DNA from: an uncultured virus (IMG/VR IMGVR_UViG_3300025840_005100)
Taxonomy: Duplodnaviria; Heunggongvirae; Uroviricota; Caudoviricetes
Length of the DNA stretch: 64,000 nt
Reading direction: 5' to 3' (one strand)
Virus record (IMG/VR): IMGVR_UViG_3300025840_005100
Part shown: piece by piece, positions 1 through 21,281 of the stretch
How the letters are laid out: each line of letters opens with the position of its first letter
Position numbering within the stretch: position 1 is the first letter of the stretch
Program-made: the position numbers and the translations under genes
Notes under the pieces: model-generated
The model's input: the letters and a program-made list of their open reading frames with translations, nothing else
Told to the model about the DNA's origin: nothing
Database searches by the model: none

Positions 1-1
1 A

Positions 2-64
2 TGGACTGAAGGAAGTAATCGAGAAAAGGGTTCATTCTTATTAGAAAAGGCATTTGTTGACTAA
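2..64 (+). CDS. 3' end of a CDS truncated by the window edge (…WTEGSNREKGSFLLEKAFVD*)
   Basis: Open frame from position 2 to TAA at 62-64, just before the next gene. Confidence 0.5.
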   Translation, partial: WTEGSNREKGSFLLEKAFVD

Positions 65-75
65 AAATAAAATTT

Positions 76-396
76 ATGAAACACGAAATAATAAGTAAGT
101 TAATGGAAATCCAATATCTCAAAGGTAGATTGGATGAACTTTACAAAGGATATGTTCCTAACAATTCTACAACAGATAATAGAATTGTAGATTCTCGTAT
201 TTCAAAATATGAAGATAAATTAAAAAAGATAGATGAAACTGCATACTATCTTTACTATATAGAAAGAGAAAATGTTCGGTTCTCAAAACAAAAATCAAAA
301 GAGAAAATCAAAAATTTGTTGGAAGAGGTATTACCAACTGTCTATAATGATACACTCAAAGAAAAGATTGAGAACCAACTAAACACTTACAAATAA
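76..396 (+). CDS. hypothetical protein (106 aa)
   Basis: ORF track; AT-rich initiation region; no recognisable motif. Confidence 0.7.
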   Translation: MKHEIISKLMEIQYLKGRLDELYKGYVPNNSTTDNRIVDSRISKYEDKLKKIDETAYYLYYIERENVRFSKQKSKEKIKNLLEEVLPTVYNDTLKEKIENQLNTYK

Positions 397-400
397 AAAA

Positions 401-417
401 GTTACAATTCCTTAACA
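401..417 (+). promoter_or_regulatory. possible OmpR/PhoB-family tandem box (GTTACA-N5-TTAACA, 11-bp period)
   Basis: Imperfect direct repeat with 11-bp period upstream of the TonB receptor/nuclease block. Confidence 0.3.
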
Positions 418-450
418 TTTTTTTTAGATATATACAATAGTTATTGAGAG

Positions 451-603
451 ATGAAAAAGGTTTATACTAATAATCTACAAAATATGATAAACAACGAACG
501 TTGTGATACGACACTTACCCAAGACCTTGGGGAATATTTTACCACAAACACATTTGGCGAAAATATTAAAATTTACTATGATTTCAGTAAGGAGGAATCG
601 TAG
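451..603 (+). CDS. small hypothetical protein (50 aa, MKKVYTNNLQ…DFSKEES)
   Basis: ATG 451 to TAG 603 read by hand; below the ORF-track cutoff; fills the gap before the TonB receptor. Confidence 0.45.
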   Translation: MKKVYTNNLQNMINNERCDTTLTQDLGEYFTTNTFGENIKIYYDFSKEES

Positions 604-645
604 TATGCAATTAGTTATGTTTAATTTAAAAATGGAAATTTAATT

Positions 646-3345
646 ATGAGAAAACTACTTTTAGTTGGGATGATGTTATTATCATCTTTGAGTGCTATGG
701 CACAGTTGAAAGGTAAGGTAGTTGAAGCGGGTTCCTCTGATGGTCTACCTGGTGCAACTGTAATTGTTAAAGGAACAACGACAGGAGCAACAACAGACAT
801 CGATGGAACTTTTTCTTTGGATGCAAGTGCAGGTGATACTTTGGTTATCACTTTCATTGGATTCCAAACTCAAGAGGTAACTGCAGCAGATGGAATTGTT
901 GTAGAACTTTTGGCTTCGGCAACTGAACTAGATGAAATCGTGGTTACTTCTGGAGTGATTGATGTGGCGAAAGTCAGAGAAACACCCGTTGCAGTAACAA
1001 CGATTGGAGCAACCGAGATTGCTTTAAAAGTGGGGAACCAAGAATTCCCTGAAATTATGAATAAGACACCTGGTGTCTACGCTACTAAACAAGGTGGTGG
1101 TTATGGTGATTCAAGAATCTCTTTAAGAGGTTTTGACCAAAGAAACACATCTTTCCTAATTAACGGACAACCTGTCAACGATATGGAAAATGGATGGGTG
1201 TACTGGTCAAATTGGGCTGGATTAACTGATGTTGCATCAGGTATTCAGATTCAAAGAGGACTTGGAGCATCAAGATTGGCTGTACCATCAGTAGGTGGAA
1301 CTGTATCAATCTTCACAAAAGCTGCAGAAAAAGAAGAAGGTGGCTCAATTGCACAAGTTGCAGGTAACGATGGATTCCTTAAAACCACAGTTGCTTACAA
1401 CACAGGTAAGAACGAAAATGGATGGGCAACATCTATTTTACTTTCTAAATGGCAAGGAGATGGTTATATTTACAACACTTCTGGTGCTGGAACAACTTAT
1501 TTCTTTGCATTAGGGTATTCACCAGAAGATTCAAATCACGCGGTGAACCTTTCTATTTTAGGAGCAGGTCAATGGCACCACCAAAGAGATGTTTGGGTAT
1601 CTATTAGAGATTACCAAAACTTTGGTGAAGATGGTATTGACAGAAGATGGAATTCCAATGGTGGTATTTTAAATGGTGAAGAGTATTCATTAAGAAGAAA
1701 CTTCTACAACAAACCACTTGCAACTCTTAACTGGGATTGGGATATTTCAGATAATGTAAAGTTAGCAACTTCACTTTATGGTTCAGCTGGTAGAGGTGGA
1801 GGAACAGGTCCTCGTGGGAACAACTATCGTAATTCTACTTTAGATGTTTTACCATTTAGAAAAGACCTTACAGAACACTACCTTGAAGGAGGTAGAGGAG
1901 CTAGAACTGCAGATGGATTCATTGATTTTGATGCATTAGTTGCTGAGAACAGAGCAAGTACTTCACCTTATACTGGTGGTATTGGAAACTTTGCAGGTGG
2001 ATTGATTGGTTCAAATGGATTCAGAGAAGATGGTGTAAACAGAGCATCACTTATCAGAAGAGCATCTATGAACTCTCATGACTGGGTTGGAGCAATTTCT
2101 AACTTAGAAATCAATAGTGGTAAATTCAAATACTCAATCGGTATCGATTTGAGAGATTACACAGGTTATCATTACAGAGTTCTTAATGATTTAATGGGAC
2201 TAGATGGGTACTACTCAACTGGTAACAAAAACTCAGGTGGTCAAATCATTGAAACTCTTGTAGAGGCATCTCCATTCCAAGATACTGGAATCAGAGGTCC
2301 TAAAATTGATTACTACAACATTGGTAAAGTTGGATGGCAAGGTGTTAATGGTTTAATCGAATACAATGATGATGAAAAACTAACTGCTGTATTACAAGCA
2401 GGTCTTTCTAATCAAGCATTCCAAAGAATCGATTACTTTGACCAACCATCAAACCCAACATCAGAAACAGCTAATGTAGGTGGTGGTTATATTAAAGGTG
2501 GTGCAAACTACAACTTTAATGAAAAATCAAATGTATTCTTCAATACAGGTTTCATTTCAAGACAACCTAACTTTGATGCAGTATTCCCTAACTATGCAAA
2601 CAACATTAATGATGATTTGCAAAACGAAGAAATTCGTTCAGTAGAATTAGGATATGGATACACTTCAAGAAAACTTGATTTGAATGTAAACCTTTACTCT
2701 ACAACTTGGGGTAACAGATTTGTTACAAGAAGTTTATCAAACCAACAAGGTGTTGATGGATTCGCTCAGTTTAGAGATATTGATGTAGTACACAATGGTA
2801 TCGAAGTTGAAGGTAAATTAAGAGCATCTCAAAGATTAACTCTTAAAGGTATGTTATCAATCGGTGATTGGAGATATACTAAAGATTTCGAAGCAGAATT
2901 ATTTGATGAAAACCAACAATCAATCGGTACTGGTACATTATATACCAAAGATGCAAAAGTTGGTGATGCTGCACAATTCGTAGCATATGGTGAAGTTGAT
3001 TATAGATTAGGTAAATTGAACTTAGATTTAGGATACAGATTCGTAGATGGATTGTATGCTGATTATTCAATTACTGATTCAGCTTTCACACAAGCAGATA
3101 ACGATGGAGCACTTGAACTTCCTTCTTATGGATTACTTGATTTAGGTGCAACTCTACAAATTGGAAAAGGATTATCTTTTAGAGCGAATGTTAACAACTT
3201 GTTAGATACTACATATATTGCAGAATCTAACTCTAACATTCACGCAACTTCAACTTCTACAACTTGGAATGGTATTGATGTTAGAAACTCAGTATGGTTC
3301 GGATTTGGAAGAACTTGGAATGCTTCTCTAAAGTACAGATTCTAA
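646..3345 (+). CDS. TonB-dependent outer-membrane receptor, Bacteroidota/flavobacterial type
   Basis: Signal peptide; carboxypeptidase-regulatory-like N-domain (LPGATVIVKGTTTGATTDIDGTFSL); LDEIVVT TonB box; plug (TPGVY…ISLRGF…LINGQPVND); barrel end VNNLLD…GRTWNASLKYRF with terminal Phe. Confidence 0.95.
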   Translation: MRKLLLVGMMLLSSLSAMAQLKGKVVEAGSSDGLPGATVIVKGTTTGATTDIDGTFSLDASAGDTLVITFIGFQTQEVTAADGIVVELLASATELDEIVVTSGVIDVAKVRETPVAVTTIGATEIALKVGNQEFPEIMNKTPGVYATKQGGGYGDSRISLRGFDQRNTSFLINGQPVNDMENGWVYWSNWAGLTDVASGIQIQRGLGASRLAVPSVGGTVSIFTKAAEKEEGGSIAQVAGNDGFLKTTVAYNTGKNENGWATSILLSKWQGDGYIYNTSGAGTTYFFALGYSPEDSNHAVNLSILGAGQWHHQRDVWVSIRDYQNFGEDGIDRRWNSNGGILNGEEYSLRRNFYNKPLATLNWDWDISDNVKLATSLYGSAGRGGGTGPRGNNYRNSTLDVLPFRKDLTEHYLEGGRGARTADGFIDFDALVAENRASTSPYTGGIGNFAGGLIGSNGFREDGVNRASLIRRASMNSHDWVGAISNLEINSGKFKYSIGIDLRDYTGYHYRVLNDLMGLDGYYSTGNKNSGGQIIETLVEASPFQDTGIRGPKIDYYNIGKVGWQGVNGLIEYNDDEKLTAVLQAGLSNQAFQRIDYFDQPSNPTSETANVGGGYIKGGANYNFNEKSNVFFNTGFISRQPNFDAVFPNYANNINDDLQNEEIRSVELGYGYTSRKLDLNVNLYSTTWGNRFVTRSLSNQQGVDGFAQFRDIDVVHNGIEVEGKLRASQRLTLKGMLSIGDWRYTKDFEAELFDENQQSIGTGTLYTKDAKVGDAAQFVAYGEVDYRLGKLNLDLGYRFVDGLYADYSITDSAFTQADNDGALELPSYGLLDLGATLQIGKGLSFRANVNNLLDTTYIAESNSNIHATSTSTTWNGIDVRNSVWFGFGRTWNASLKYRF

Positions 3346-3358
3346 AAATATAAAATTT

Positions 3359-3384
3359 AGGGGGAGGAAACTCCCCCTTTTTTT
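3359..3384 (+). terminator. rho-independent terminator
   Basis: AGGGGGAG-GAAA-CTCCCCCT hairpin followed by a T run. Confidence 0.9.
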
Positions 3385-3405
3385 ATTATAAACTCAACAA
3401 ATGTT

Positions 3406-3627
3406 ATGAACGAAAAACTCTACAAGTATGGTGTAATTTACTTCGGTACTACACTAATGATGTTATCTCCCTTTGTTATTGATTCTTGGGTAGGAAAGGT
3501 GGGAATGATGTTAGGACTAATCCTTATAACAGTCCAAACACAAAAAACAAAACAATACAACCTCTCTCTACTAAATGCAGTAGGATTTACAGGTTATTTA
3601 TACGCACTTATAACAAGTTTACTATGA
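3406..3627 (+). CDS. small 3-TM membrane protein (possibly half-PnuC/SemiSWEET-like)
   Basis: Three hydrophobic segments in 73 aa; TGA overlaps the ATG of the nuclease. Confidence 0.6.
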   Translation: MNEKLYKYGVIYFGTTLMMLSPFVIDSWVGKVGMMLGLILITVQTQKTKQYNLSLLNAVGFTGYLYALITSLL

Positions 3628-4463
3628 AAAAGTTATTTCAACCAATTTACTATGGATTAAAAATTTATTTATTTCCAATTCTACTATTTATTTTCCTTTT
3701 TGTAACTTGCAATACAGTTTTTGCAAACGATTGGGGTAAGACAGGACACCGAATCGTTGGTGAAATTGCAGAAAGACAACTAACTGATGAGGTTAAAGAA
3801 ATCGTATATGATATCTTAGATGGTGAATCTTTATCTTCGGTTTCAACATGGCCAGATGAAATGAGAAGTAATGTTAATTTTAAAGAATGGGATAAATGGC
3901 ATTATGTTAATTTACCTCTTGATAAAGAATATCCAGAAATTACACATGATGGTGATAATATAGTAAAAGCAATAGAAACAGCAACTGCTGTTCTTAAATC
4001 ACCTTTTGCAGATAAAGAAATGAAAAAGTTTTATCTGAAATACTTGGTACACTTAGTAGGTGATTTACACCAACCAATGCACACAGGTAGATACGAAGAT
4101 TATGGTGGTAGTAAGATTCCTCTAAAGTTTAAAGGTAGAAAAGGTAGTGAAACAAATACAAACCTCCATGTTCTATGGGATTCTAATCTTATTGATGATT
4201 TTAAGATGTCCTTTACAGAATGGTCAAATCACTTAGAAAATAAATTTAGAAAAAAAGAAATACAACAAAAGAATGTTTTAGATTGGACATTCGAATCTCA
4301 TTGGTATGCAAGAGATATTTACAAAAATACTCCCCCAAACTCATATTTATCTTATGATTATGTATATCAATATCAACCTATTTTAGAAAAAAGGTTGTAT
4401 CAGGCAGGTAAACGATTAGGTAACCTTTTAAACGAGATATTTGGGGATGAGCAAACTAATTAA
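3624..4463 (+). CDS. exported S1/P1 nuclease
   Basis: Start reassigned to ATG 3624 (ATGA overlap); hydrophobic leader then WGKTGH, WPDEMR, WHYVN, HLVGDLHQPMH, NLHVLWD motifs. Confidence 0.93.
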   Translation: MKKLFQPIYYGLKIYLFPILLFIFLFVTCNTVFANDWGKTGHRIVGEIAERQLTDEVKEIVYDILDGESLSSVSTWPDEMRSNVNFKEWDKWHYVNLPLDKEYPEITHDGDNIVKAIETATAVLKSPFADKEMKKFYLKYLVHLVGDLHQPMHTGRYEDYGGSKIPLKFKGRKGSETNTNLHVLWDSNLIDDFKMSFTEWSNHLENKFRKKEIQQKNVLDWTFESHWYARDIYKNTPPNSYLSYDYVYQYQPILEKRLYQAGKRLGNLLNEIFGDEQTN

Positions 4464-4980
4464 TTTATTTGGTGGACCGGGAATAGGAAAATCATCCATT
4501 GCTGCAGGAATCACCTACAAATTAAAAAAGAAACATATAAGTTGTAATAACCCATACGAGTTTCCAAAGAGATTGGCATGGGATAAAAATATACCAGCGA
4601 TATCAGACCAACTCTATGTATTCGCAAACCAACATAGAGGAATCGCAGAATGTTATGGTAAGGTAGATTATATAGTAATTGATTCACCAATTTTATTTTC
4701 TACTATTTATCATAGATATTATACAGAAGGATATCCTGCAGAATTTTATGGAGAACCTTTTCATAATTTTGTAATTGATTTACACAAAAAATATGATAGC
4801 ATTAATATTCTTTTAGAAAGAACTGAAGGAAACCATAATGAAAAAGAAAGATATCAAAATTTAGAAGAATCAATTGCAATCGATACTTTATGTAAACAAG
4901 TATTGGATGAAACAAATACTCCATATCATACTATAAAGGTAGGACCTAAAACAGTAAAAGATATATTAAAGTTATTATAG
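4447..4980 (+). CDS. P-loop kinase/ATP-binding protein, NadR/AAA_28-like
   Basis: INLFGGPGIGKS Walker A; IVIDSP; R-x-Q-x-x-EES lid typical of phage NadR-type kinases. Confidence 0.75.
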   Translation: MSKLINLFGGPGIGKSSIAAGITYKLKKKHISCNNPYEFPKRLAWDKNIPAISDQLYVFANQHRGIAECYGKVDYIVIDSPILFSTIYHRYYTEGYPAEFYGEPFHNFVIDLHKKYDSINILLERTEGNHNEKERYQNLEESIAIDTLCKQVLDETNTPYHTIKVGPKTVKDILKLL

Positions 4981-5390
4981 TGAATATTGTATCTGATTAT
5001 TTGAATACTATTAAAACAGAGTTATTACCAAGTAAAATCCACGGTATTGGTACATTTGCTTTTGAAAATATTTCAATAGGTACTAATGTTTTTCCACATT
5101 GGGAGGGTGACAGTGGATACTATGATGTAGATTTATATTTAATAAAAAATAGTTATTTTATAAATAAGATTTTAAGAAAATATTTCAAAATTGTAAATAA
5201 TACTGCTAGTGTTTACTTAATATCTAATTCTCATTTTTTATGTCCATGGAAGCATTTTGTAAATCATTCAGAAAATCCAAATATAGATATGTATGGTAAT
5301 TGTATAAATACTATAAATAAAGGAGATGAGATACTTAGAAACTACAAAGAAATTTCTTATTCAATTGAAAAAAATATTTATGTAATATGA
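4980..5390 (+). CDS. SET-domain protein (putative lysine methyltransferase)
   Basis: SKIHGIGTFA, FVNHSENPN and INKGDEILRNY SET motifs; GTG start. Confidence 0.85.
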   Translation: MNIVSDYLNTIKTELLPSKIHGIGTFAFENISIGTNVFPHWEGDSGYYDVDLYLIKNSYFINKILRKYFKIVNNTASVYLISNSHFLCPWKHFVNHSENPNIDMYGNCINTINKGDEILRNYKEISYSIEKNIYVI

Positions 5391-6403
5391 ATTTTATACA
5401 ATTACATTTTAGTGAATTTGAAGATGACCTTTCATTTTATTTAAGAAACTTTAAAAAACGTATTCAAGTTATTCCTTTTGGTGAATATGAAAATAATATT
5501 GAAGAAATCATTGTATCTATAAGAACTGAAAAAGAACTACTTCTAACATCTGACCATGAAATTTTTGATAATAAATCTGATTATTTATTAGACAGAATAA
5601 TTGATGAGATTTATGAAAATAAACAAAACGATGTTAGAATATCTATGGCAACATCATCAAAAATAAAATATGGACTACATCCTCTTGTAAATTTACTACA
5701 TTGGCAAGGTTTGGGGATTAGAGAAACTATTGAAAATGAAACTGAAAATGAATTCAAAATTTTTAATCAAGTTGACTACCCAATAGATTTATATAATGAT
5801 GATAGAGAATGTAAAGGAATACTTTCAGTTAGAAACCAAAGTTATATACGAGATTCTATTTTTAAAAAAATAGACAAATCAGAGTTTGAAGGAGTTCTAA
5901 GGTATAACAGATGGAGTTCTACTTATAACAATTATTACAAAAAAAGTATATTATATGATTATGATGGATATATAAATCCTGTTTCTACTGAACAACTTAG
6001 AAAAGAGTATTTTAATTCATATGTTTCTTTTGTAATGGAATCAACTTATGGTTCGATTGAATTAAAAGCTCCAAATCAGTTAACAGAAAAAACTGTATTA
6101 TCATTTTTAACTTGCACAATGCCAATTTTATTTGGTGGTAAATATTTTATTTCTGAATTAGAAAATATGGGATTCAAAGTTTTTAATAAAGAATTTGGTT
6201 TTAAGCATGGAGATTTACTTGATACTAACTCTATGGAAAAACAAAATCTTTTTATAGAAACAATAGATAATTATAATAAAATGAGTTTAGAAGATATTAA
6301 AAAGATGTATATGGATAATATACATCACATAAAAAGTAATTACGAAATAATTAGAACTTTCGTTTTGGGTGAATTTTTCAATTTTAAAAAAAATGTAATA
6401 TGA
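5387..6403 (+). CDS. putative glycosyltransferase (GT10-like TEKT family)
   Basis: SYVSFVMES…LTEKTVLSF…PILFG…GFKVF; related to the 60791 and 61901 genes. Confidence 0.5.
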   Translation: MNFIQLHFSEFEDDLSFYLRNFKKRIQVIPFGEYENNIEEIIVSIRTEKELLLTSDHEIFDNKSDYLLDRIIDEIYENKQNDVRISMATSSKIKYGLHPLVNLLHWQGLGIRETIENETENEFKIFNQVDYPIDLYNDDRECKGILSVRNQSYIRDSIFKKIDKSEFEGVLRYNRWSSTYNNYYKKSILYDYDGYINPVSTEQLRKEYFNSYVSFVMESTYGSIELKAPNQLTEKTVLSFLTCTMPILFGGKYFISELENMGFKVFNKEFGFKHGDLLDTNSMEKQNLFIETIDNYNKMSLEDIKKMYMDNIHHIKSNYEIIRTFVLGEFFNFKKNVI

Positions 6404-7305
6404 AATCATTTATATTTGTGGGAGATTCTCTCACTTGGGGCGAAGGCCTTGAATTATACGACAAAAAATTTAAAGATACTTTTATAGAACTAACTAATAA
6501 AGGAGACTTTAGATTTTTTGATTATGGGGATATATTATTTTCAGGATATGCTCCTTTACATAGAGAAAAGTATAGATATCCTAGTTTAGTATCAAGTTAC
6601 TTTGATACTGTATATTTTTCAAATGGAATATCTGAAAATAATATTGTATCAATAGATTATGTAATAAAACTTCATGAAAAATATGGTAGTGATAAGTTTG
6701 GTGATGTAATTATAAATTTATGTTCAACAAATCATGACGAACATATAACTTCAAAAGAAAAATTAAAAGATTTATTTGATGTTGAATTTAAATTATTTGA
6801 ACTCCAAAAGATTTTAGAATCTTGGTACAACTACTGTGGTGAATTTGGCGTTAACGATGAAATTGCAAAAGATGAGTCCAAGTTCAATAAACATTTTAGT
6901 AATACCATTTTAGACTTAGAATTGATTGAAAGATTTCAATCTTACTTTTTCCAACCTGAAAATTTTAGAAAGTTTTTAATACAAAATAGTTATGAATATC
7001 TTGAAGAAAAACTTAGCGAATTAGACAAACTTGGAATAAAGTATCATATTTTATTGCCTTGGACTTCACATGATTATGAAAATTATAATAAAGTAATTCA
7101 AAAATTTGATTTAGATTTGACTAATAATATAATACCTATATTTTACAAAGGAGCTGAATATCAGTCACTTGCTGAACTTTTGAATAAAAAAGAAATGTGG
7201 ATTAATTCTGATTTAGGGTGGAGTAATTGTTATTTTTTATCACAAGAGGGACATAAAATCGTATCAGAGTCTATTATAAAATATTTAGAAAATTTGGATA
7301 TGTAA
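6400..7305 (+). CDS. SGNH/GDSL-like protein
   Basis: FVGDSLTWGEG block I; C-terminal (YF)LSQEGH, where the catalytic His appears replaced. Confidence 0.65.
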   Translation: MKSFIFVGDSLTWGEGLELYDKKFKDTFIELTNKGDFRFFDYGDILFSGYAPLHREKYRYPSLVSSYFDTVYFSNGISENNIVSIDYVIKLHEKYGSDKFGDVIINLCSTNHDEHITSKEKLKDLFDVEFKLFELQKILESWYNYCGEFGVNDEIAKDESKFNKHFSNTILDLELIERFQSYFFQPENFRKFLIQNSYEYLEEKLSELDKLGIKYHILLPWTSHDYENYNKVIQKFDLDLTNNIIPIFYKGAEYQSLAELLNKKEMWINSDLGWSNCYFLSQEGHKIVSESIIKYLENLDM

Positions 7306-7324
7306 AATTATTTTCGTATCTTTA
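7293..7324 (+). promoter_or_regulatory. Bacteroidota sigma-A-type promoter
   Basis: TTTG-N20-TATCTTTA. Confidence 0.75.
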
Positions 7325-7339
7325 TAAAAAATTAAAATT

Positions 7340-7600
7340 ATGGCACAGATTATTGGAGCAGGTGGACAACCACTACAAACAGAAGAACAACCTTTAGATA
7401 TCACAAAAACAGAACCAGTTGGTTGTAAAAAATGTGGTAGTGAGATATTCATTCAAGGATTCTCATTTCGTAAAGTTCCACGATTACTTACAGGTAAACA
7501 AAAAGATGAAATGTTACCAGTAGAATTATTTCTATGTGGGGATTGTGGTGAAGTTTTAAATGAACTATTACCAAAAGGATTAAAATTAGAAGAAGAATAG
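7340..7600 (+). CDS. zinc-ribbon hypothetical protein
   Basis: CKKCG…CGDCG. Confidence 0.75.
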   Translation: MAQIIGAGGQPLQTEEQPLDITKTEPVGCKKCGSEIFIQGFSFRKVPRLLTGKQKDEMLPVELFLCGDCGEVLNELLPKGLKLEEE

Positions 7601-8050
7601 ATGGCAAAATCACTATTTGACCATATTAAGGCGATTACAACAGAACAAAATCCAAATTATTGGGAAACATTAGATGAGGGAGATAAAAAAACATGGTCTA
7701 ACTATATGATTCATAGATTCCTTTCTATGAATCCAGATTGGATTCAAGTACTTTCTGAAATACAACCATATACACAAACTTTAGAGCCTAAACAACTTTA
7801 CCTTGCTCTTATCGGGCTATTACCAAAAGGAAAATACTATTTAAAATATACCAAAGGTAAGAACGATACTAAATATGAAAGTTGGTTAATAGATTTATTA
7901 AAACAAGACTTTCAATGTTCAAAAAAAGAAGCAGAAGAATATACAGAAATTTTATACTCCACACGAGAAGGTAGAGAAAATATCAAATATATTTGTGAAA
8001 AATATGGAATTGAGTCCAAACAAATTACTAAACTAAAATTAAAGGTTTAA
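7601..8050 (+). CDS. putative clamp-loader small subunit (T4 gp62-like)
   Basis: LFDHIKAIT…YMIHRFLSM…LY..LI.LLPKGK.YLKY.K pattern resembles the gp62 family. Confidence 0.6.
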   Translation: MAKSLFDHIKAITTEQNPNYWETLDEGDKKTWSNYMIHRFLSMNPDWIQVLSEIQPYTQTLEPKQLYLALIGLLPKGKYYLKYTKGKNDTKYESWLIDLLKQDFQCSKKEAEEYTEILYSTREGRENIKYICEKYGIESKQITKLKLKV

Positions 8051-8053
8051 TTA

Positions 8054-8085
8054 TTTGGATTTCTCCTATTTTTTTCGTATCTTTG
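8054..8085 (+). promoter_or_regulatory. Bacteroidota sigma-A-type promoter
   Basis: TTTG-N20-TATCTTTG, perfect consensus. Confidence 0.85.
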
Positions 8086-8103
8086 TATAACAAAGAAAGA
8101 TAA

Positions 8104-8964
8104 ATGGCAAAAGTAAGTTACTCTCAATATGGTATGTATTCAACCTGTCAAGAACAGTACAAGTTGAACTACATTGATAAATTGGGAACATCATCGGCAA
8201 ACATTCACACAATTTTCGGTAGTGCGATGCACGAAACAATACAACACTTCTTAGATGTGATGTATAATGTTACCAAGAAACAAGCACTTCAACTCAACTT
8301 AGAGCAAATGTTATACAAACAACTTGTAGAACATTTTACCAAAGAATCTGAAAAGATGGAAGATGGTATGTATCCATGTACCAAAGAAGAATTAGGTGAG
8401 TTTTTTGAGGATGGTAAGAAAATTCTACAATATTTTACTAATAAGTTAGATAAACTTTACCACAAAAGTGGTTTCGAGTTGGTAGCAATCGAACAAATCC
8501 TAAATGCAGAAGTAAAACCTGGTGTAAACTTCATTGGTTTTATCGATATCTTACTTAAAGATAAAACAACTCAAGAGTACATTATCATTGACTTAAAAAC
8601 ATCAACAAGAGGTTGGAACAAATATCAGAAGGCTGATAAGATAAAAACCTCTCAGATGTTATTATACAAAAAGTTCTACTCAGAAAAATACGATATCCCA
8701 TTAGATAAAATCAAAGTAGAATATCAAATTTTAAAACGTAAAATATCAGAAGATTTTGAATACCCTATACCACGAATCTCAAAATTCGTTCCTGCAAATG
8801 GTAAACCCTCGGTAAACAATGCATGGAATGGATTCCTTAACTTTGTAAATGAAGTTTTTGATGAAGGTGGTAATTTTATTCAAAGAGAATATTTACCCAA
8901 CAAAGGTAAACAATGTGATTGGTGTGAATTTAAAACGAGAGGACTTTGTTCTGTATGGAAATAA
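8104..8964 (+). CDS. PD-(D/E)xK exonuclease, Cas4/RecB-like
   Basis: SYSQ…C, FGSAMHE, GFIDILL…IIDLKTS, QMLLY and C-terminal CDWCEF…C Fe-S cysteines. Confidence 0.9.
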   Translation: MAKVSYSQYGMYSTCQEQYKLNYIDKLGTSSANIHTIFGSAMHETIQHFLDVMYNVTKKQALQLNLEQMLYKQLVEHFTKESEKMEDGMYPCTKEELGEFFEDGKKILQYFTNKLDKLYHKSGFELVAIEQILNAEVKPGVNFIGFIDILLKDKTTQEYIIIDLKTSTRGWNKYQKADKIKTSQMLLYKKFYSEKYDIPLDKIKVEYQILKRKISEDFEYPIPRISKFVPANGKPSVNNAWNGFLNFVNEVFDEGGNFIQREYLPNKGKQCDWCEFKTRGLCSVWK

Positions 8965-8985
8965 TCTGTTTTTTATATTTGTATA

Positions 8986-8993
8986 TATTTATA
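8986..8993 (+). promoter_or_regulatory. TATTTATA promoter-like element
   Basis: Recurrent intergenic octamer. Confidence 0.5.
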
Positions 8994-9019
8994 TTAAAAT
9001 ATATTAAAAACGGAGAGTT

Positions 9020-9224: not shown

Positions 9225-10604
9225 ATGGCGAAGAAAAAAATACTATTACTTTCAGATGACCTTCGAATGTCATCAGGTATTGCAACAGTATCAAAAGAAT
9301 TTGTATTCGGAACCTTTGATAAGTTCGATTGGGTACAATTAGGAGCAGCAGTTAATCATCCAGATAAAGGAAAAGAAATAGATTTGGGTGAAGATGCTCG
9401 TAAAATTAGTGGAGTAAAAGATGCTTCTCTTAAAGTGATTCCTTGGACTGGTTATGGAGATGCAAATATTCTTAGAGAACTAATCATGAGACACCAACCT
9501 GATGCAATTCTACACTTCACAGACCCAAGATATTGGAGATGGTTATATGAGATTGAAGCTGAAATTAGACAGAACATTCCAATCTTATTCTATCATATTT
9601 GGGATGACCTACCAGACCCTGATTACAATAGAGATTACTATGAATCTTGTGATTGGTTAGGTTGTATATCTAAACAAACTTATGGTATTGTAAAAAGAGT
9701 AGGCCAAATCAAATCTCCAACAATTAAAAACTTAGAAGATTGGCAAGTAGATTATGTTCCTCATGGTATCAATTCTGATTTATACAAACCAGTAGAAGTG
9801 CCCGAAGAATTTAGAAAATCGGTTCTTGGTGATAAAGATTACAAGTTCGTTCTGTTTTGGATGAATAGAAACATCAAACGTAAACAACCTTCAGATGTAA
9901 TTTGGGCATTCAAACAATTCAGAGATGGATTACCTGAAGAAGATAAAGATAAGGTATGTTTGATTATGCACACCGCACCAAAAGACCAAAATGGTACTGA
10001 CTTGATTGCAGTTGCAGAAAAGATTGCACCAGAATGTGATATCAAATTTTCAACGGATAGAATTTCACAACAACAACTAAACTATCTTTACAACTTATCA
10101 GATTGTACAATCAACATTGCTGGTAACGAAGGATTTGGTTTAGTAACTGCAGAATCAGTTATGGCTGGAACACCCATTATCGTAAATGTTACAGGTGGAA
10201 TGCAAGACCAATGTGGTTTTAAATTAGATGGTAAATACTTTACCGCAGATGATTATGCAGAGATTGGTTCTTTACACGAATGGAGAAAGTGGGAAGATAA
10301 AGTAACTCATGGTGAGTGGGTGAAACCAGTATGGTCAAGAGCACAAACTATGGTTGGTTCAATTCCTACTCCTTATATCATAGATGATAAAGTTGATGTA
10401 GTAGAAGTATCAGAATCAATCAGATATTGGTATGATATTCCAAAGGAAGAAAGAAAGAAACGTGCATTAGTTGGTAGAAAAGAATTCCAAGGAGAAATGG
10501 GATTAAATGCTAAGAATCAAAATAAATGTATGGCAGATGGTATCCTAAAAGGAATTGAAAATTGGAAACCAAAAGATAAGTTTAACGTTTACAAAATTAA
10601 ATAA
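9225..10604 (+). CDS. GT-B (GT4-like) glycosyltransferase
   Basis: KKILLLSDD…SGIA; VPHGI; NRNIKRK; EGFGLVTAESVMAGTPII. Confidence 0.9.
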   Translation: MAKKKILLLSDDLRMSSGIATVSKEFVFGTFDKFDWVQLGAAVNHPDKGKEIDLGEDARKISGVKDASLKVIPWTGYGDANILRELIMRHQPDAILHFTDPRYWRWLYEIEAEIRQNIPILFYHIWDDLPDPDYNRDYYESCDWLGCISKQTYGIVKRVGQIKSPTIKNLEDWQVDYVPHGINSDLYKPVEVPEEFRKSVLGDKDYKFVLFWMNRNIKRKQPSDVIWAFKQFRDGLPEEDKDKVCLIMHTAPKDQNGTDLIAVAEKIAPECDIKFSTDRISQQQLNYLYNLSDCTINIAGNEGFGLVTAESVMAGTPIIVNVTGGMQDQCGFKLDGKYFTADDYAEIGSLHEWRKWEDKVTHGEWVKPVWSRAQTMVGSIPTPYIIDDKVDVVEVSESIRYWYDIPKEERKKRALVGRKEFQGEMGLNAKNQNKCMADGILKGIENWKPKDKFNVYKIK

Positions 10605-10882
10605 TGAGTAAACCAATATTCGTAATCCGTTTCCCTGGTCATTGGAAATCTAAACAAATTCAAGTATCTCGTAAGGCGATTTATGATATGAAAGATTTGA
10701 ATGAGGATTATCATGTGTTGGTTCTACAAGATAATGAAATTGAAAGTACAAGATTCGAGTGTTTCAATTCCCCCCACGAACCAGAAAAATTAGAAGAAAT
10801 AACAAAACTTACAGAAATCTCAATCCAAAGATGTTTGAGAAATGAAGAAGATAACATAAAAAAAGAATTAGAAGATGAGTAA
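10604..10882 (+). CDS. hypothetical protein
   Basis: ORF translationally coupled to both neighbours. Confidence 0.65.
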   Translation: MSKPIFVIRFPGHWKSKQIQVSRKAIYDMKDLNEDYHVLVLQDNEIESTRFECFNSPHEPEKLEEITKLTEISIQRCLRNEEDNIKKELEDE

Positions 10883-12134
10883 ACCTTTATTAGTATTTCA
10901 GGCACCAGTTGCAACAAGAAGTGGGTATGGTGACCATTCAAGAGATATACTCAAATCACTATTTGAGTTAGATAGATACGATATAAAAATTGTACCAACA
11001 AGATGGGGTAATACTCCACAAGACCAATTAGACCCATCATCGGAATTTGGACAAAAGGTAATCCAAAATATAGCAACCCAAGTTGATAGACAACCTGATA
11101 TCTTTATTCAGATTTCAGTTGCAAATGAATTTAAAAGAGTTGGTAAATATAATATTGGAATTACCGCAGGAGTTGAAACAACAGTAGCACCTCAAGATTT
11201 TTTACAAGGTGGTAATCAGATGGATTTAATTATTACACCATCTCAGTTTACCAAAGATACTTTAGTAAAAACTGTTTACACTCAAGTTGATAAAAACACA
11301 CAACAAAAAACCGGAGAATTAAAATTAACAAAACCAGTTGAGGTTTTATTTGAAGGAGTAAATACAGAGATATTCAATGGTAAATCTTCTTCTTCTATTT
11401 TAGAAGGAGTTGATACAGATTTTAACTTCTTATTTGTAGGACATTGGTTGGCAGGAGATTTAGGACAAGATAGAAAAGATGTAGGAATGATGATTAAAAC
11501 ATTCTGTACAGTTTTCAAAGATTTACCAAAGAAACAACAACCTGGTCTTATTCTTAAAACTTCACAAGCAGGATTTTCGGTAATGGAAAGAGAAGGTATC
11601 TCTAAAAAGATACAAGAAGTAACCAATCAATTTGGTGATTCCTGTCCTCCAATTCATTTAGTATTTGGTGATTTATCAGAAAGTGAATTAAACTCTCTTT
11701 ACAACGATAAAAAAGTAAAGGCAATGTTGATGTTCACTAAGGGTGAAGGATATGGTAGACCACTTGCAGAATTTGCATCAACAGGTAAACCAATTATTGT
11801 TTCCAAATGGAGTGGACATACAGATTTCTTACCAGAAGAAAATACAGTTTACTTAGAAGGTGAGTTAAAAGAAGTACACCCATCAGCATCAAATAAATTT
11901 TTATTGAAAGAATCAAAATGGTTCACAGTAGATTATTCAAAAGCAGCTGGTAAAATCTATGATGTATTCAAAAATTATAAAACTTATTTGAAAAAATCAG
12001 AAGGATTAAAAACAAATATAGTTAAAAACTTTAACTTAACTAAACAAACTGAGGTTCTAAAAGGAATACTTGATAAGTATGTTAAAGTACAACAAAAAGT
12101 AGAATTAAAATTACCAGAAATTAAGAAGTTATAA
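10875..12134 (+). CDS. GT-B (GT4-like) glycosyltransferase
   Basis: TRSGYG; FLFVGHW…RKD; GEGYGRPLAEFASTGKPII. Confidence 0.9.
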   Translation: MSKPLLVFQAPVATRSGYGDHSRDILKSLFELDRYDIKIVPTRWGNTPQDQLDPSSEFGQKVIQNIATQVDRQPDIFIQISVANEFKRVGKYNIGITAGVETTVAPQDFLQGGNQMDLIITPSQFTKDTLVKTVYTQVDKNTQQKTGELKLTKPVEVLFEGVNTEIFNGKSSSSILEGVDTDFNFLFVGHWLAGDLGQDRKDVGMMIKTFCTVFKDLPKKQQPGLILKTSQAGFSVMEREGISKKIQEVTNQFGDSCPPIHLVFGDLSESELNSLYNDKKVKAMLMFTKGEGYGRPLAEFASTGKPIIVSKWSGHTDFLPEENTVYLEGELKEVHPSASNKFLLKESKWFTVDYSKAAGKIYDVFKNYKTYLKKSEGLKTNIVKNFNLTKQTEVLKGILDKYVKVQQKVELKLPEIKKL

Positions 12135-12658
12135 TGGCTTTTACAAGACAGTATAAAACATTTTTAAGACCTGAACGTAGAGTTCCTCGTTCTCAAATCA
12201 GACCGAGGAATATCTATCGTATCACAACGTATCGTGGTGGAGACCCATCTACTAAAAGTGGTGAAGATGCAAGATATATCTTTGTGATTGGTATTGTTGG
12301 TCATAAAGTTCATGCAATCAAACTAAACCCAATTAAACCTATTGATTTTACCAACTTTATCAACAAACTTAGAGATAAGAGAATTCCAATAGGTTCAGAC
12401 CAAGCATTAGAACTTTTACTCAAAAAGTTTTCTAAAGACGGAAATGCTCTTTTTGAATCATATATTAAAAATAATTCTAAAATATATTCTCGTTCCCTTT
12501 CAAATTACAGAACTTATATTTTGAATAGTATTATAAATGTATATGAGATTAGATTTGAAGAAGATTTTCTAAGAAGTTTATTTAAAGAAGGTTCTACCCA
12601 ATCTACAAGACAGCAGATTATAACAGATGAAATAAACGAAGATACAGATGACAATTAG
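12134..12658 (+). CDS. hypothetical basic protein
   Basis: Coupled ORF; Arg-rich N-terminus; no firm family. Confidence 0.7.
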   Translation: MAFTRQYKTFLRPERRVPRSQIRPRNIYRITTYRGGDPSTKSGEDARYIFVIGIVGHKVHAIKLNPIKPIDFTNFINKLRDKRIPIGSDQALELLLKKFSKDGNALFESYIKNNSKIYSRSLSNYRTYILNSIINVYEIRFEEDFLRSLFKEGSTQSTRQQIITDEINEDTDDN

Positions 12659-13268
12659 TTACGCAATAACAGTACACAACGAATTAGAAGAACTAACTAG
12701 GTTATTAGATTTTTTAAACAATAACATTAGAGAAGAAGATGAAATTATAGTTCAGTATGATGAAGATGGTGTAACCCAAGAAGTGGTAGAGTATTTAGAT
12801 ATAATGCGTAAAATGCATGAAATTGTTGTTGTGGAATTCCCTCTTAACAAAGATTTTGCATCTTACAAAAACAATCTTAAAAAACATTGTACAAAAGATT
12901 TCATATTCCAAATAGATGCAGATGAAATCCCAACTGAATATTTGGTGAGATGGTTACCTAAAGTTCTTGAAGATAACCCAGTTGATATTATCTTTGTACC
13001 AAGAGTAAACACAGTTGATGGATTAACTCAACAACACATAGATAAATGGAGATGGAATGTAAACGAAAAAGGTTGGGTAAATTGGCCTGATTACCAAACT
13101 CGTATTTACAAAAATACAGAAGATGTAACTTGGATGAATAAGGTACATGAAAAAATTACTGGTTATGATACATTCTCAAACTTCCCAGCGGAAGAACAAT
13201 GGTCATTGTATCATCCAAAGAAAATAGATAGACAAGAAAAACAAAATCAATTTTACGAAACAATATAA
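12648..13268 (+). CDS. GT2-family glycosyltransferase
   Basis: ISYAITVHNE; FIFQIDADE DxD motif; WPDYQTR; VHEKI. Confidence 0.9.
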   Translation: MTISYAITVHNELEELTRLLDFLNNNIREEDEIIVQYDEDGVTQEVVEYLDIMRKMHEIVVVEFPLNKDFASYKNNLKKHCTKDFIFQIDADEIPTEYLVRWLPKVLEDNPVDIIFVPRVNTVDGLTQQHIDKWRWNVNEKGWVNWPDYQTRIYKNTEDVTWMNKVHEKITGYDTFSNFPAEEQWSLYHPKKIDRQEKQNQFYETI

Positions 13269-13271
13269 GTT

Positions 13272-13577
13272 ATGGAAGGAAAATTTAGACCATTAGGAGA
13301 TAGAGTCCTAATCAAACCACATGAGAAAACAGAAAATAAAACTGCAAGTGGTATTATCTTAACAGAATCATCACAACAATCACAAAAAGTTTATGGTGAT
13401 GTGGTATCCATAGGAACTGGTATCTTTTCTCAGAGTGGAGATAGAATACCAATGACCGTAAAAGTTGGTGATGTGGTGATGTACGAAAAAGGACAAGGTA
13501 CAAACGAAATAGAAGTTGGTACTGAAAAATATTTACTATTTAATGAACACCAATTAATTGGTATAGTAAGTAAATAA
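13272..13577 (+). CDS. groES: co-chaperonin GroES
   Basis: RPLGDRVLIK…TASGIIL…VKVGDVV; no groEL in the window. Confidence 0.95.
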   Translation: MEGKFRPLGDRVLIKPHEKTENKTASGIILTESSQQSQKVYGDVVSIGTGIFSQSGDRIPMTVKVGDVVMYEKGQGTNEIEVGTEKYLLFNEHQLIGIVSK

Positions 13578-13783
13578 TGTTTGTAGAAACTAAAAAAAGA
13601 ACAATACTAAAAACTTTCAGTTGGAGAGTAGTAGCAATACTAAACTCCTTCTTAGTATTGACTGTTAATGTAACAGATAATAATTTTTTGAATGCACTTT
13701 ATATGAACATCACAGGTTTCATCGTGTATTATTTTTTTGAAAGAATTTGGAATAAAATAAAATATGGGAGAGTAACTGAATGA
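13577..13783 (+). CDS. DUF2061-like small membrane protein
   Basis: RTILKTFSWR…YYFFERIWNKI. Confidence 0.8.
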   Translation: MFVETKKRTILKTFSWRVVAILNSFLVLTVNVTDNNFLNALYMNITGFIVYYFFERIWNKIKYGRVTE

Positions 13784-14631
13784 AAATATTAGTAACAGGA
13801 GGTGCTGGTTTCATAGGAACCAACCTCATTAAAAGACTATTAAAAGAAGGTCATGAAGTGGTATCACTTGATGATTATGAAACTGGACTTCAAGAAAATG
13901 AAGTTGAGGGAGCAACATATATAATGGGTGATATTGAATCACTTGGATATTGGAAAGGTGATGGATTTGATTTATGTTATCACTTGGCAGCATTAAGTAG
14001 AATTCAACCATCATTCGAAAACCCAACAGAATGTTTTAGAGTAAATGCTCAAGGTTCACAAGTTGTAGCAGAATGGGCAAGATTAAATAATGTAAAAGTT
14101 GTTTATGCTGGTTCATCTTCAAGATGGCATGACCCATTCCAATCACCTTATGCTGCATTTAAACATATGGGTGAAGAAGTATTCAAACTATACAGACAAA
14201 CATATGGTTTAGATGCTGAGATTTGTAGATTTTATAATGTATATGGACCTGATGAAATCATCGAAGGTGATTGGGCAGCAGTAATTGGAATTTGGAGGAG
14301 ACAAGTTAGAGATGGTGAAAAAATTACCATTGTTGGTGATGGAGAACAAAGAAGAGATTTCACTCATGTAGTTGATATCGTAGATGCACTTTATAGAGTG
14401 GGTATGGGTTCTGAAAAACACGAAGATGCATGGGAACTTGGTTGTGGTGTAAATTATTCAATCAATGAAATGTATGAAATGTTCAAAGAAAAGTTTCCAC
14501 AGATAGAATCACTTTATTTACCAGACCAACCAGGTAATTACAGAAAAACTTTGAGAGAAAACGATGATACTCTTGAAAGATTAGGATGGGAACCAAAAGA
14601 TAGATTAAGAGATTATATCCAAAGTTTATGA
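13780..14631 (+). CDS. NAD-dependent nucleotide-sugar epimerase/dehydratase
   Basis: TGGAGFIG, YAAFK (YxxxK), RFYNVYGP, GDGEQRRDFTHV. Confidence 0.95.
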   Translation: MKILVTGGAGFIGTNLIKRLLKEGHEVVSLDDYETGLQENEVEGATYIMGDIESLGYWKGDGFDLCYHLAALSRIQPSFENPTECFRVNAQGSQVVAEWARLNNVKVVYAGSSSRWHDPFQSPYAAFKHMGEEVFKLYRQTYGLDAEICRFYNVYGPDEIIEGDWAAVIGIWRRQVRDGEKITIVGDGEQRRDFTHVVDIVDALYRVGMGSEKHEDAWELGCGVNYSINEMYEMFKEKFPQIESLYLPDQPGNYRKTLRENDDTLERLGWEPKDRLRDYIQSL

Positions 14632-15461
14632 TTGGAATAGTAGGACAAGGTTTTGTTGGTAATGCAGTTTATCAAAAGTTTAAGAACTATTATGATGTTC
14701 TTACCAATGATTTAGATGAAAATAAATCTACCGCAACATTAGAGAATTTAACTCAAATGTGTAGTACTATTTTCTTATGTTTACCAACTCCAATGAAATC
14801 AGATGGTAAATGTGATACTTCTATATTAGAAAAGGTTTTAGATACGATTGATTTACTTACAGATAATTTAGAAACGAAAAAAACAATAGTAATTAAATCT
14901 ACAATACCACCTGGTACTACTGAAAAATTTAATAAAAGATATGAATCATTGGATATTGTATTTAATCCAGAGTTTCTTACAGAAAGAAACGCGGTAGAAG
15001 ATTACAATAATCAGAATAGAATTATTTTAGGAGGACCAAGACCAAGTACTACTGAATTAAAACAAGTATTCTCAAAAGTATTTCCTAAGGCACATATTAT
15101 TAAGACTGATTCTACTCATGCAGAAATGGTTAAGTATCTTACTAATTCATTTCTAGCAACCAAAGTTTCTTTTGCAAATGAGATATATCAAATTTGTGAA
15201 GGTTTACATATAGATTATGATAAAGTAGTAGAATATGCAACCTATGATGAAAGATTGGGTAAATCACATTGGAACGTACCAGGCCATGATGGTGATTTTG
15301 GTTTTGGTGGACATTGTTTTCCAAAAGATTTATCAGCACTTTTAAGATTAGCAGAAGATTTGAATGTGGTTGATAATGTACTCAGTGCAGTAGAACAAAC
15401 TAATTACTCAGTTAGAAAGAATAGAGATTGGGAACAAATGAAAGGAAGAGCAGTATCATGA
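14628..15461 (+). CDS. UDP-glucose/GDP-mannose dehydrogenase family (short form)
   Basis: GQGFVG, LPTP, KSTIPPG, NPEFL, AEMVKY, GFGGHCFPKD. Confidence 0.92.
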   Translation: MIGIVGQGFVGNAVYQKFKNYYDVLTNDLDENKSTATLENLTQMCSTIFLCLPTPMKSDGKCDTSILEKVLDTIDLLTDNLETKKTIVIKSTIPPGTTEKFNKRYESLDIVFNPEFLTERNAVEDYNNQNRIILGGPRPSTTELKQVFSKVFPKAHIIKTDSTHAEMVKYLTNSFLATKVSFANEIYQICEGLHIDYDKVVEYATYDERLGKSHWNVPGHDGDFGFGGHCFPKDLSALLRLAEDLNVVDNVLSAVEQTNYSVRKNRDWEQMKGRAVS

Positions 15462-18925: not shown

Positions 18926-18933
18926 AAATAAAA

Positions 18934-20883: not shown

Positions 20884-21257
20884 AAAAATTATTTTTAAAT
20901 TGGGATGTAATTGAAAATCTTGTTATAGATTTATCAAATAAAATAGACACTTCAAAATATAAAGGAATATTTGGAGTACCAAGGGGAGGATTAATACCTG
21001 CTGTTTTGTTATCACATAGAACTGAAATAAAAATGGTTGATTATATTGATGATACTGTTTTAGTAGTGGATGATATTGTAGATACTGGTGAAACTTTGAA
21101 AGATATTACAAATGATATTGTTTGCTTACATAAAAAATTTCATTCAAAAAAAGAACCAATGTTATATGGAAATCTTGTTGATAACGATATTTGGATTGTT
21201 TATCCATGGGAACTAGAAGATTCTAAAGAAAAAAGAGACAAAACATTTGGAAATTAA
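20880..21257 (+). CDS. type I phosphoribosyltransferase (xanthine/guanine PRT-like)
   Basis: GVPRGGLIPA; VVDDIVDTGET; WIVYPWE. Confidence 0.9.
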   Translation: MKKLFLNWDVIENLVIDLSNKIDTSKYKGIFGVPRGGLIPAVLLSHRTEIKMVDYIDDTVLVVDDIVDTGETLKDITNDIVCLHKKFHSKKEPMLYGNLVDNDIWIVYPWELEDSKEKRDKTFGN

Positions 21258-21277: not shown

Positions 21278-21281
21278 TACT

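Follow-up and report, generated by a model that had tools for sequence, protein, structure and literature searches.

A candidate phage-borne cassette for the import and salvage of nucleic-acid breakdown products

The window analysed here is a 64,000-nucleotide stretch of DNA from an uncultured virus (IMG/VR record IMGVR_UViG_3300025840_005100), and the subject of this report is a run of four plus-strand genes near its beginning, encoding a TonB-dependent outer-membrane receptor, a small membrane protein (TM73), an S1/P1-family nuclease and a P-loop kinase (KIN). With belief and doubt about evenly balanced, we read these genes as a phage-borne import-and-salvage cassette for the breakdown products of extracellular nucleic acids, organised as a minimal ddb or polysaccharide-utilisation-locus (PUL) system.

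In the proposed sequence of events, the receptor, a protein of host lineage made from its own strongly expressed unit with a terminator, would be inserted in the outer membrane and would import oligonucleotides or nucleotides by means of the TonB of the host, with host surface nucleases or lysis debris as the source of supply. The S1/P1 enzyme, which has the domain and residues of its family, would then act in the periplasm in the manner of DdbB of the ddb loci, cutting single-stranded oligonucleotides and RNA to 5'-mononucleotides and stripping 3'-phosphates. Passage of the nucleosides into the cell would fall to phosphatases in the host periplasm and to nucleoside carriers of the host inner membrane, possibly aided by TM73. 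In the cytoplasm KIN, a member of the family of NadR ribosylnicotinamide-kinase (RNK)-like enzymes, would finally trap the nucleoside by phosphorylation.

The receptor, its transcription unit and its cellular orthologues

The receptor gene (646-3345, plus strand) encodes 899 amino acids (aa) with an N-terminal CarbopepD_reg_2 domain (E 1.4e-17), a Plug domain (E 3.1e-12) and a TonB barrel (E 9.7e-10); the Pfam scores were 47.4 bits for PF07715 (cut-off 23.9) and 39.3 bits for PF00593 (cut-off 27). Sixty phage copies keep a signal peptide (MRKLLL...AMAQ), a TonB-box-like L.EVVVTSGVIDVAK and a C-terminal phenylalanine (...KYRF), read by the usual motif definitions for signal peptide, TonB box and C-terminal aromatic residue. 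This full domain set and a dN/dS of 0.17, indicative of purifying selection, bear out the initial annotation of an intact receptor. Forms of 824-836 aa lacking the N-terminal domain were seen in phages and bacteria alike.

Relatives of the receptor were encoded by 437 of the 440 matched IMG/VR stretches (66-100% identity) and by 586 of the 608 matched stretches in GTDB, and they made up 7960 of 8000 candidates from a large protein collection. The best cellular orthologues, 62-79% identical to the window receptor, belong to pelagic Flavobacteriaceae, Cryomorphaceae, Crocinitomicaceae and Cyclobacteriaceae and include those of a 2.6-Mb Polaribacter chromosome (74%) and of the single-cell genome MS024-3C (75%); a second tier of cellular relatives stands at 41-46% identity. 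In a 1.5-Mb genome without a DUF5689 match, two paralogues of the receptor stand in tandem (G117:C7:19746-25223), one 70% and the other 43% identical to that of the window.

Phage and bacterial receptors are interleaved on a FastTree phylogeny of 125 rows, where at least 12 label changes are needed, and judged from these sequence relationships the receptor is a host-derived gene moving between phage and host. Part of the apparent switching from phage to host may be spurious, since two short contigs binned into bacterial metagenome-assembled genomes (MAGs) are probably mis-binned phage fragments: the receptor of L097, next to a Peptidase_M15_3 gene, hardly differs from the one on viral contig L045 (branch lengths 0.005 and 0), and the receptor of L098 groups with those of the phage loci L077 and L081. 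When the window is compared with its closest relative (L002:514-3210), the dS of the receptor is 0.14, as against 0.65-1.23 in neighbouring genes, which points either to a recent exchange of the receptor alone or to strong codon constraint.

Curated family models did not assign a substrate class to the receptor. The SusC/RagA model TIGR04056 was not reached (90.2 bits against a cut-off of 368.25, over 162 N-terminal positions only), and no SusD-like gene stands next to the receptor in the window. The receptor likewise stays below the NCBIfam cut-offs for siderophore, haem and B12 receptors (TIGR01783, 82.8 against 223.5; TIGR01786, 67.9 against 323.75; TIGR01779, 41.2 against 599.7), as do three of its cellular orthologues for every such cut-off.

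Independent genomic evidence supports an association of receptors of this family with the uptake of nucleic acids. Ten of 75 bacterial receptor loci show the order receptor, four-transmembrane (4-TM) protein, EEP_3 nuclease (on the opposite strand) and DdbC-like receptor, followed in six of them by a DdbD-like gene with DUF5689; the arrangement was found in Robiginitalea (receptor 70-71% identical to that of the window), Aurantibacter, Gaetbulibacter, Flagellimonas, Maribacter and several MAGs. When 151 Flavobacteriaceae genomes, sampled independently, were searched, 41 contained the receptor at E<=1e-120 and 139 contained DUF5689. DUF5689 lies 3.9-10.4 kb downstream of the receptor on the same strand in 21 of these 41 genomes (coordinates cross-matched by hand); the listed copy is on the same contig at a distance of 35-900 kb in six, and in the other 14 it is on another contig, unlisted or unmatched.

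The ddbABCDEF system of Bacteroides thetaiotaomicron, as described by Sharan et al. 2025 (PMC12478041), comprises secreted nucleases, a TonB-dependent transporter and a periplasmic nuclease with a signal peptidase I (SPI) signal, and genes of the DdbC/DdbD type are tied there by experiment to DNA depletion. The ddb-related genes RA0C_RS04915/RS04920 of Riemerella anatipestifer are needed for DNA uptake and natural transformation, according to PMC8459023. The initial annotation had proposed that the phage re-tools the host envelope to import and digest external DNA and RNA. The proximity of the cellular orthologue to ddb-like loci in 21 of 41 genomes therefore partly supports the scavenging idea; the digestion of external nucleic acid and the dedicated transporter call for correction, as the nuclease is probably periplasmic and TM73 has no kinship to PnuC or SemiSWEET by sequence profile (see below).

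Nucleic-acid genes occur elsewhere around the cellular receptor. In L141 a gene for Endonuclease I separates the receptor from the 4-TM gene, and S1/P1 follows the receptor in L099 and L111, the latter with a CNT nucleoside carrier alongside. Exo_endo_phos is a neighbour in L129, and an HHH_3 protein is encoded nearby in L102. Four loci have RecA upstream of the receptor, and about nine have a convergent RecJ downstream. The genes inserted between receptor and 4-TM protein in L148 and L150 were also considered as nucleases and rejected, being ThrE-type exporters and another barrel protein.

The 4-TM protein itself follows the cellular receptor in 23 of 75 loci, across both identity tiers. It is an inner-membrane protein of about 145 aa (L103:10813-11253, L100:10754-11227) with invariant H8, H54, H93 and H111 and the motifs EHP and SRIPW, without any Pfam or NCBIfam match, and it has no match in phages at E<=1. 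Its model (predicted local distance difference test score, pLDDT, 93) gave generic fold matches (Foldseek best E 0.11; VIA top Z 10.8, with CcmF at 10.2 and CcsBA at 9.9), and as a candidate di-haem reductase its Foldseek and VIA matches are non-specific.

A hairpin with a T-run resembling an intrinsic terminator was found at 3359-3385 on the plus strand, 14 nt past the receptor stop; the stem (3359-3378) has 8 bp, six of them GC pairs, and a GAAA loop. It parts the receptor from the three genes downstream, as had been noted at the outset, and belongs to 14 terminator-like sites observed in the 8.2-kb region, where 2.4 were expected. The strong codon bias ascribed to the receptor is visible in one respect and not in another. 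The GC content at third codon positions (0.217, mean 0.193) and the effective number of codons (34.7, median 36.1) are ordinary; the C-ending choice at Asn, Phe, Tyr and Ile (AAC, TTC, TAC, ATC) is 0.52 against a mean of 0.27, ranking sixth among 81 genes, and ATA is never used.

Four RNA libraries contain contigs at least 95% alike to the region. Contigs across the receptor, with a word depth of about 28-55, stop near 3304-3326. The sequence further on is in a separate contig, beginning at 3395 or 3404; the one in library X1 is identical to the window and spans 3395-5126 at a depth of about 6. The break coincides with the terminator. As evidence on expression this is a weak hint, because genes cannot be ranked by the depth of contigs and some DNA may have been carried over. 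An apparent 319-nt skip in the RNA-library contigs (2978 to 3298) rests on 24 flanking letters.

The phage-made receptor might have a quite different role, that of replacing or diluting the host copy, a possible adsorption site, so as to block superinfection or to keep progeny from adsorbing to infected cells, with the periplasmic nuclease as a second barrier. The receptor is abundant and conserved in hosts and has been exchanged repeatedly (the label changes on the tree); its low dS against L002 is as expected after recent exchange; the window holds a 14-kb glycan-modifying block (see below); and a 2026 preprint proposes receptor interference by outer-membrane proteins of huge phages (10.64898/2026.10.24.761521). 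However, that the receptor serves as an adsorption site is a supposition. TonB box, plug and the whole barrel are under purifying selection, which would be needless in a decoy, and both the kinase and the ddb-like link are left unexplained. We consider remodelling of this kind improbable.

Nuclease, membrane protein and kinase

The S1/P1-family nuclease (3624-4463, plus strand, 279 aa, best start ATG 3624) matches PF02265 with E 1e-59 and 202.9 bits over profile positions 1-257 of 258. Its mature domain begins at Trp37, which in the alignment to the best solved match, 8qjl (E 2.3e-29), falls on residue 1 of the mature chain. W37, H42, D78, H93, H143, D147, H153, H182 and D186 are invariant in 26 S1/P1 sequences; we take these nine positions, including the N-terminal Trp of the mature chain, to be the zinc ligands. 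The dN/dS of the gene is 0.12.

Comparison of the homologues showed SPI-type N-termini, with a hydrophobic signal peptide ahead of Trp37. There is no conserved lipobox (Cys29 of the window protein is not conserved), no secretion domain and nothing past the nuclease domain. With the catalytic residues intact, these features agree with the exported nuclease of the initial annotation; given the signal type and the lack of lipobox and secretion domain, the enzyme is probably periplasmic and would not itself digest external DNA or RNA. The reasoning from SPI and SPII signals to nuclease location follows PMC12478041. No S1/P1 homologue was found in deposited phages; the enzyme is present in 94 of the 151 Flavobacteriaceae genomes, at one copy each. 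A single genome has a second, PnuC-like gene about 90 bp from S1/P1 and convergent with it (G062:C1:2425156-2426486).

TM73 (3406-3627, plus strand) is a 73-aa protein whose AlphaFold2 model consists of three helices (pLDDT 92.6), in accordance with the three transmembrane segments first noted, and its gene has a dN/dS of 0.23. It belongs to a small family that an exhaustive profile search placed in 79 clusters, nearly all of 50-100 aa; the Atlas clusters are dominated by viruses, and G14, Q44, N52 and N57 are invariant in 29 diverse members. None of 19 members examined had a Pfam match at E<=10. The mini-transporter of PnuC or SemiSWEET kind proposed initially is ruled out at the sequence level: hhalign probabilities were 1.0% against 12 flavobacterial PnuC proteins, with no PF04973 match, and 0.3% against nine SemiSWEETs, with no match to PF03083 or PF04193. 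Fold searches were non-specific. For the triple-helix-bundle fold of SemiSWEET and PQ-loop proteins, Foldseek gave E 6-9, TMq 0.57-0.59 and a root-mean-square deviation of 7-21 Å, and the VIA search was topped by generic bundles (Z 9.4), with cystinosin at Z 6.9. Kinship with the bacterial 4-TM partner was likewise tried and rejected (hhalign probability 0.4%).

Two further settings of TM73-like sequences were encountered. P0266, a metagenomic protein of 235 aa, joins a dihydrofolate reductase (DHFR) domain (PF00186, E 3.4e-49) to a C-terminal TM73-like part; either the two are genuinely fused or the gene call read through a boundary. The TM73-like gene of a distant phage lineage (L168:4001-4613; L169:4001-5913) overlaps the gene of a HAD-type phosphatase (weak Pfam match), and KIN is missing there; in L169 a possible DnaQ-like exonuclease (motif by eye, no Pfam match) and a PPK2 kinase (E 2.3e-46) follow. 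Both loci came from one single-protein scan, and a second such scan gave none.

KIN (4447-4980, plus strand, 177 aa) is a P-loop kinase of the AAA_28 or NadR RNK type. A TTG at 4441 would give 179 aa, and the ATG at 4447 is the likely start because homologues begin with MSK. The protein matches AAA_28 with E 7.6e-11 (42.9 bits against a cut-off of 27) and has a conserved Walker A motif, GGPGIGKS. A profile of 11 diverse homologues matches NadR RNK domains near full length (8x7f, E 4.7e-6, positions 3-161; 1lw7, 8.5e-6; 6gye, 0.012), so the NadR-like kinase originally recognised has its best profile matches among solved structures of that kind; a partial match to deoxyguanosine kinase is equal in score. 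The nicotinamide mononucleotide (NMN) adenylyltransferase domain of NadR was not found in the 179-aa form, which consists of the kinase domain only. KIN has a dN/dS of 0.09.

The three genes are closely packed. The stop of TM73 and the start of S1/P1 overlap in an ATGA (3624-3627), and the end of S1/P1 at 4463 overlaps the start of KIN by 17-23 nt; both overlaps fit the translational coupling suggested earlier.

The kinase brings in another possible explanation, which we rate as having little probability: the module might import compounds related to nicotinamide adenine dinucleotide (NAD) and rebuild NAD as in the NadN/e(P4)-PnuC-NadR route of Haemophilus, with KIN phosphorylating nicotinamide riboside and TM73 serving as its partner in the membrane, for instance against an NAD-depleting defence. 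It draws on the near full-length matches of KIN to solved NadR RNK domains, on an NAD synthase (NadE) gene directly upstream of KIN in L037, L040 and L041, on a KIN homologue near nicotinamide phosphoribosyltransferase (NAMPT) in Myxococcus phage Mx1, on the label 'nicotinamide riboside kinase' that certain JGI records give to close KIN relatives, and on the PnuC-like gene close to S1/P1 in G062. KIN, however, lacks the NMN adenylyltransferase domain, TM73 is not a PnuC by profile, and hosts own a PnuC in 60 of 61 genomes. No S1/P1 enzyme is known to act on NAD, which also counts against this explanation. In two other phages the KIN homologue stands beside DNA polymerase genes, one of the homologues being labelled thymidylate kinase, and the deoxyguanosine kinase match scores as high as those to NadR.

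Distribution of the module in phages

The arrangement was surveyed in 59 distinct contigs that continue for 3 kb or more downstream of the receptor. S1/P1, TM73 and KIN all occur 3' of the receptor in 16 of them, S1/P1 and KIN in three, TM73 and KIN in six, and KIN alone in 14. None of the 25 contigs with S1/P1 or TM73 lacks KIN, and S1/P1 starts within 700 nt of the receptor stop in 17 of 19 contigs. Two gene orders were seen, TM73-S1/P1-KIN and S1/P1-TM73-KIN. Of the four genes the receptor forms the widespread core and KIN is common, with S1/P1 and TM73 found only alongside KIN; these three make up a module, nested and optional, that lies between the receptor and replication genes that are conserved. 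A check of synteny across related phages, called for in the initial annotation, thus places the module beside the receptor and shows partial co-conservation only, with S1/P1 in 19 of 59 contigs and none of the three genes in 20. All four genes are under purifying selection, with median dN/dS of 0.09-0.23 as against 0.08-0.11 for two core genes; these figures are rough, because dS is near saturation.

On the receptor tree, the phages ordered S1/P1-TM73-KIN form a clade whose sister group is the receptors of Arcticimaribacter, a genus with a native receptor-S1/P1 pair, and the Arcticimaribacter S1/P1 is 45-56% identical to the phage copies, the enzymes of Gaetbulibacter and Polaribacter being 35-44% identical. 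The sister position and the higher identity fit a joint movement of the two genes and suggest that receptor and S1/P1 were transferred as a pair with Arcticimaribacter, in one direction or the other.

The slot 3' of the receptor holds other genes as well. Some are related to nucleotides or NAD, such as SNase and Endonuclease_NS in phage L052, a phosphoribosyltransferase in L084 and the NadE genes described above. Others are GT2, GTP cyclohydrolase I, radical SAM, thioredoxin and glutamine synthetase, and the slot is thus a general island of metabolic genes, so the adjacency of receptor and module could be positional. One explanation along these lines, unlikely in our judgement and yet the one to be taken most seriously after the cassette, is that these are unlinked auxiliary genes in an insertion hot spot: the receptor would sustain an essential host import of another nutrient, such as an iron or haem compound, after host shut-off, comparable to cyanophage psbA for photosystem II, and S1/P1, TM73 and KIN would be separate nucleotide-metabolism genes of the same island.

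The unrelated metabolic genes in the slot, the 20 contigs with the receptor and none of the other three genes, and the terminator between the receptor and the rest are all in keeping with a hot spot. The strongly optimal codons of the receptor would fit a highly expressed housekeeping importer, its NCBIfam matches, weak and partial, are to receptors of the siderophore and haem type, and its cellular partner is the four-histidine 4-TM protein. On the other hand, the short distance from receptor to S1/P1 in 17 of 19 contigs, the paired transfer suggested with Arcticimaribacter and the ddb-like loci adjoining the cellular orthologue in 21 of 41 genomes speak against unlinked genes; the receptor stays below the family cut-offs for siderophore, haem and B12 uptake, and the fold searches with the 4-TM partner were non-specific.

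Several of these observations also weigh against the import-and-salvage cassette, together with others. The invariable four-histidine 4-TM partner might indicate that the substrate is a different one, for example iron or haem, and one of its Atlas clusters is auto-named 'Cytochrome B'. Sugar genes flank the cellular receptor (PGI in about 20 loci, GH16 in three, MurQ-like in two). Native receptor-S1/P1 adjacency is limited to two of 75 loci, both from one genus, and was found in none of the 151 genomes. Strict receptor orthologues occur in small genomes without a DUF5689 match (G117, G129). The receptor is not DdbC: aligned end to end with the DdbC-like neighbour in L141 it is 23% identical, and the true orthologue (64%) is present in the same locus. 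Genes for DdbD-like proteins (DUF5689), EEP_3 and Endonuclease I were absent from the window and the 94 phage loci searched (DdbD at E<=1e-5). KIN is a general phage gene, with relatives in 79 phage records of unrelated hosts, and TM73 has no assignable function. The 59-contig sample is enriched in S1/P1, 19 of its loci having been retrieved using that gene. The depth of the RNA-library contigs is no proof of transcription, and for every part of the cassette the substrate is a prediction.

A bolder version of the import-and-salvage cassette, which we offer tentatively and think rather doubtful, makes the receptor the missing oligonucleotide or nucleotide importer of marine Flavobacteriia, working beside DdbC and DdbD. 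Jumbo flavophages would have captured it repeatedly with S1/P1 and the kinase, in effect a minimal 'DNA-eating' kit that is portable. The infected cells would feed on nucleic acid released by earlier lysis, a direct viral shortcut in the marine cycle of dissolved DNA and phosphorus, and TM73 would be a new minimal three-helix carrier of the inner membrane or a tether for the kinase.

The remainder of the window is that of a phage. Every large open reading frame (ORF) is on one strand, the GC content is about 30% and there are no tRNAs; PHROG and Pfam matches include a T4-type clamp-loader subunit, a PD-(D/E)XK exonuclease, a tail-fibre-related protein and many glycan-modifying enzymes. Related IMG/VR contigs reach lengths of 252-276 kb, and the source is therefore probably a large uncultured jumbo phage of pelagic Flavobacteriia, of 250-280 kb. 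No close relative was found among deposited phages (megablast with window positions 1-9000; tblastn with a 550-aa protein), and tblastn with a 699-aa window protein gave two distant matches and nothing else. Backbone genes recur in the related IMG/VR loci (clamp-loader subunit in 43, zinc-ribbon protein in 41 and PD-(D/E)XK nuclease in 33 of 92) and are absent from all 75 bacterial receptor loci.

About 14 kb of the window (9225-23832) consist of cell-surface glycan genes, among them two glycosyltransferases (phrog_2170), a nucleotide-sugar epimerase and UDP-glucose dehydrogenase-like, sialyltransferase-like and phosphoheptose-isomerase-like genes, which suggests that the phage also remodels the surface polysaccharide of its host. 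Directly 3' of KIN, a 136-aa ORF (4980-5390) matches the SET domain at a score below threshold (E 4.5e-4, 21 bits where the cut-off is 22.4). Two of the 92 related loci contain this ORF, and both derive from a single contig that is identical to the window. A 405-aa AAA+ protein with high optimal-codon use (52457-53674), matching the 'porphyrin biosynthesis' family phrog_249 with E 9.4e-28, may be a further auxiliary gene.

Significance and comparison with known systems

Dissolved DNA and RNA are major marine pools of organic phosphorus and nitrogen and stem largely from viral lysis. If the cassette works as proposed, infected Flavobacteriia of blooms become active consumers of dissolved nucleic acid, and models of viral lysis, of phage nucleotide supply and of nutrient recycling would have to change. 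An abundant, uncharacterised receptor family of pelagic Flavobacteriia would gain a function, and the ddb concept of 2025, drawn from gut Bacteroides, would come to include the ocean and viruses. Tests of the receptor are within easy reach, since Polaribacter, Gaetbulibacter and Maribacter, which carry orthologues, are cultivable.

Cyanophages carry pstS and phoA, phage genes that boost phosphate uptake by the host during infection, and the 3'-nucleotidase/nucleases of trypanosomatids are S1/P1-family enzymes that salvage purines and phosphate at the cell surface. Both systems involve other proteins and other hosts, no sign of phosphate regulation was seen here, and the window enzyme is probably periplasmic. 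PnuC-NadR uptake and trapping resembles the cassette in that the gene of a small membrane protein is translationally coupled with that of a NadR-RNK-like kinase; it differs in that TM73 is not a PnuC (hhalign probability 1.0%, as above) and KIN lacks the NadR adenylyltransferase domain.

The likeness to ddb loci lies in the cellular orthologue of the window receptor, which adjoins DdbC/DdbD-like genes (in the 21 of 41 genomes described), and in the end-to-end alignment of the receptor with a DdbC-like protein. The window receptor is a separate paralogue, however, and the phage cassette, which has no DdbD (DUF5689), EEP_3 or Endonuclease I, contains a nuclease of the S1/P1 family together with an added kinase and a three-helix membrane protein. 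It is also carried by a phage, a term that does not occur in the ddb paper (PMC12478041).

Receptors of the 22-strand outer-membrane type encoded by phages of Bacteroidota have been described for the megaphage Mar_Mega_1, as 'SusC' (PMC9723777), and for Lak phages (10.64898/2026.10.24.761521); the parts of these papers relied on here read them as an auxiliary gene or as envelope remodelling and do not tie them to a nuclease or kinase. Their records match the window receptor over 19-31% of its length at 26-30% identity. Unlike them, the window receptor has a specific cellular orthologue (62-79%) and is represented in 437 IMG/VR stretches. In the literature searched, supplementary tables being outside its scope, no paper on a phage combination of receptor, nuclease and kinase was found. 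Phage auxiliary genes, DNA utilisation of the ddb type and megaphage receptors are each already known; what would be new here is their combination.

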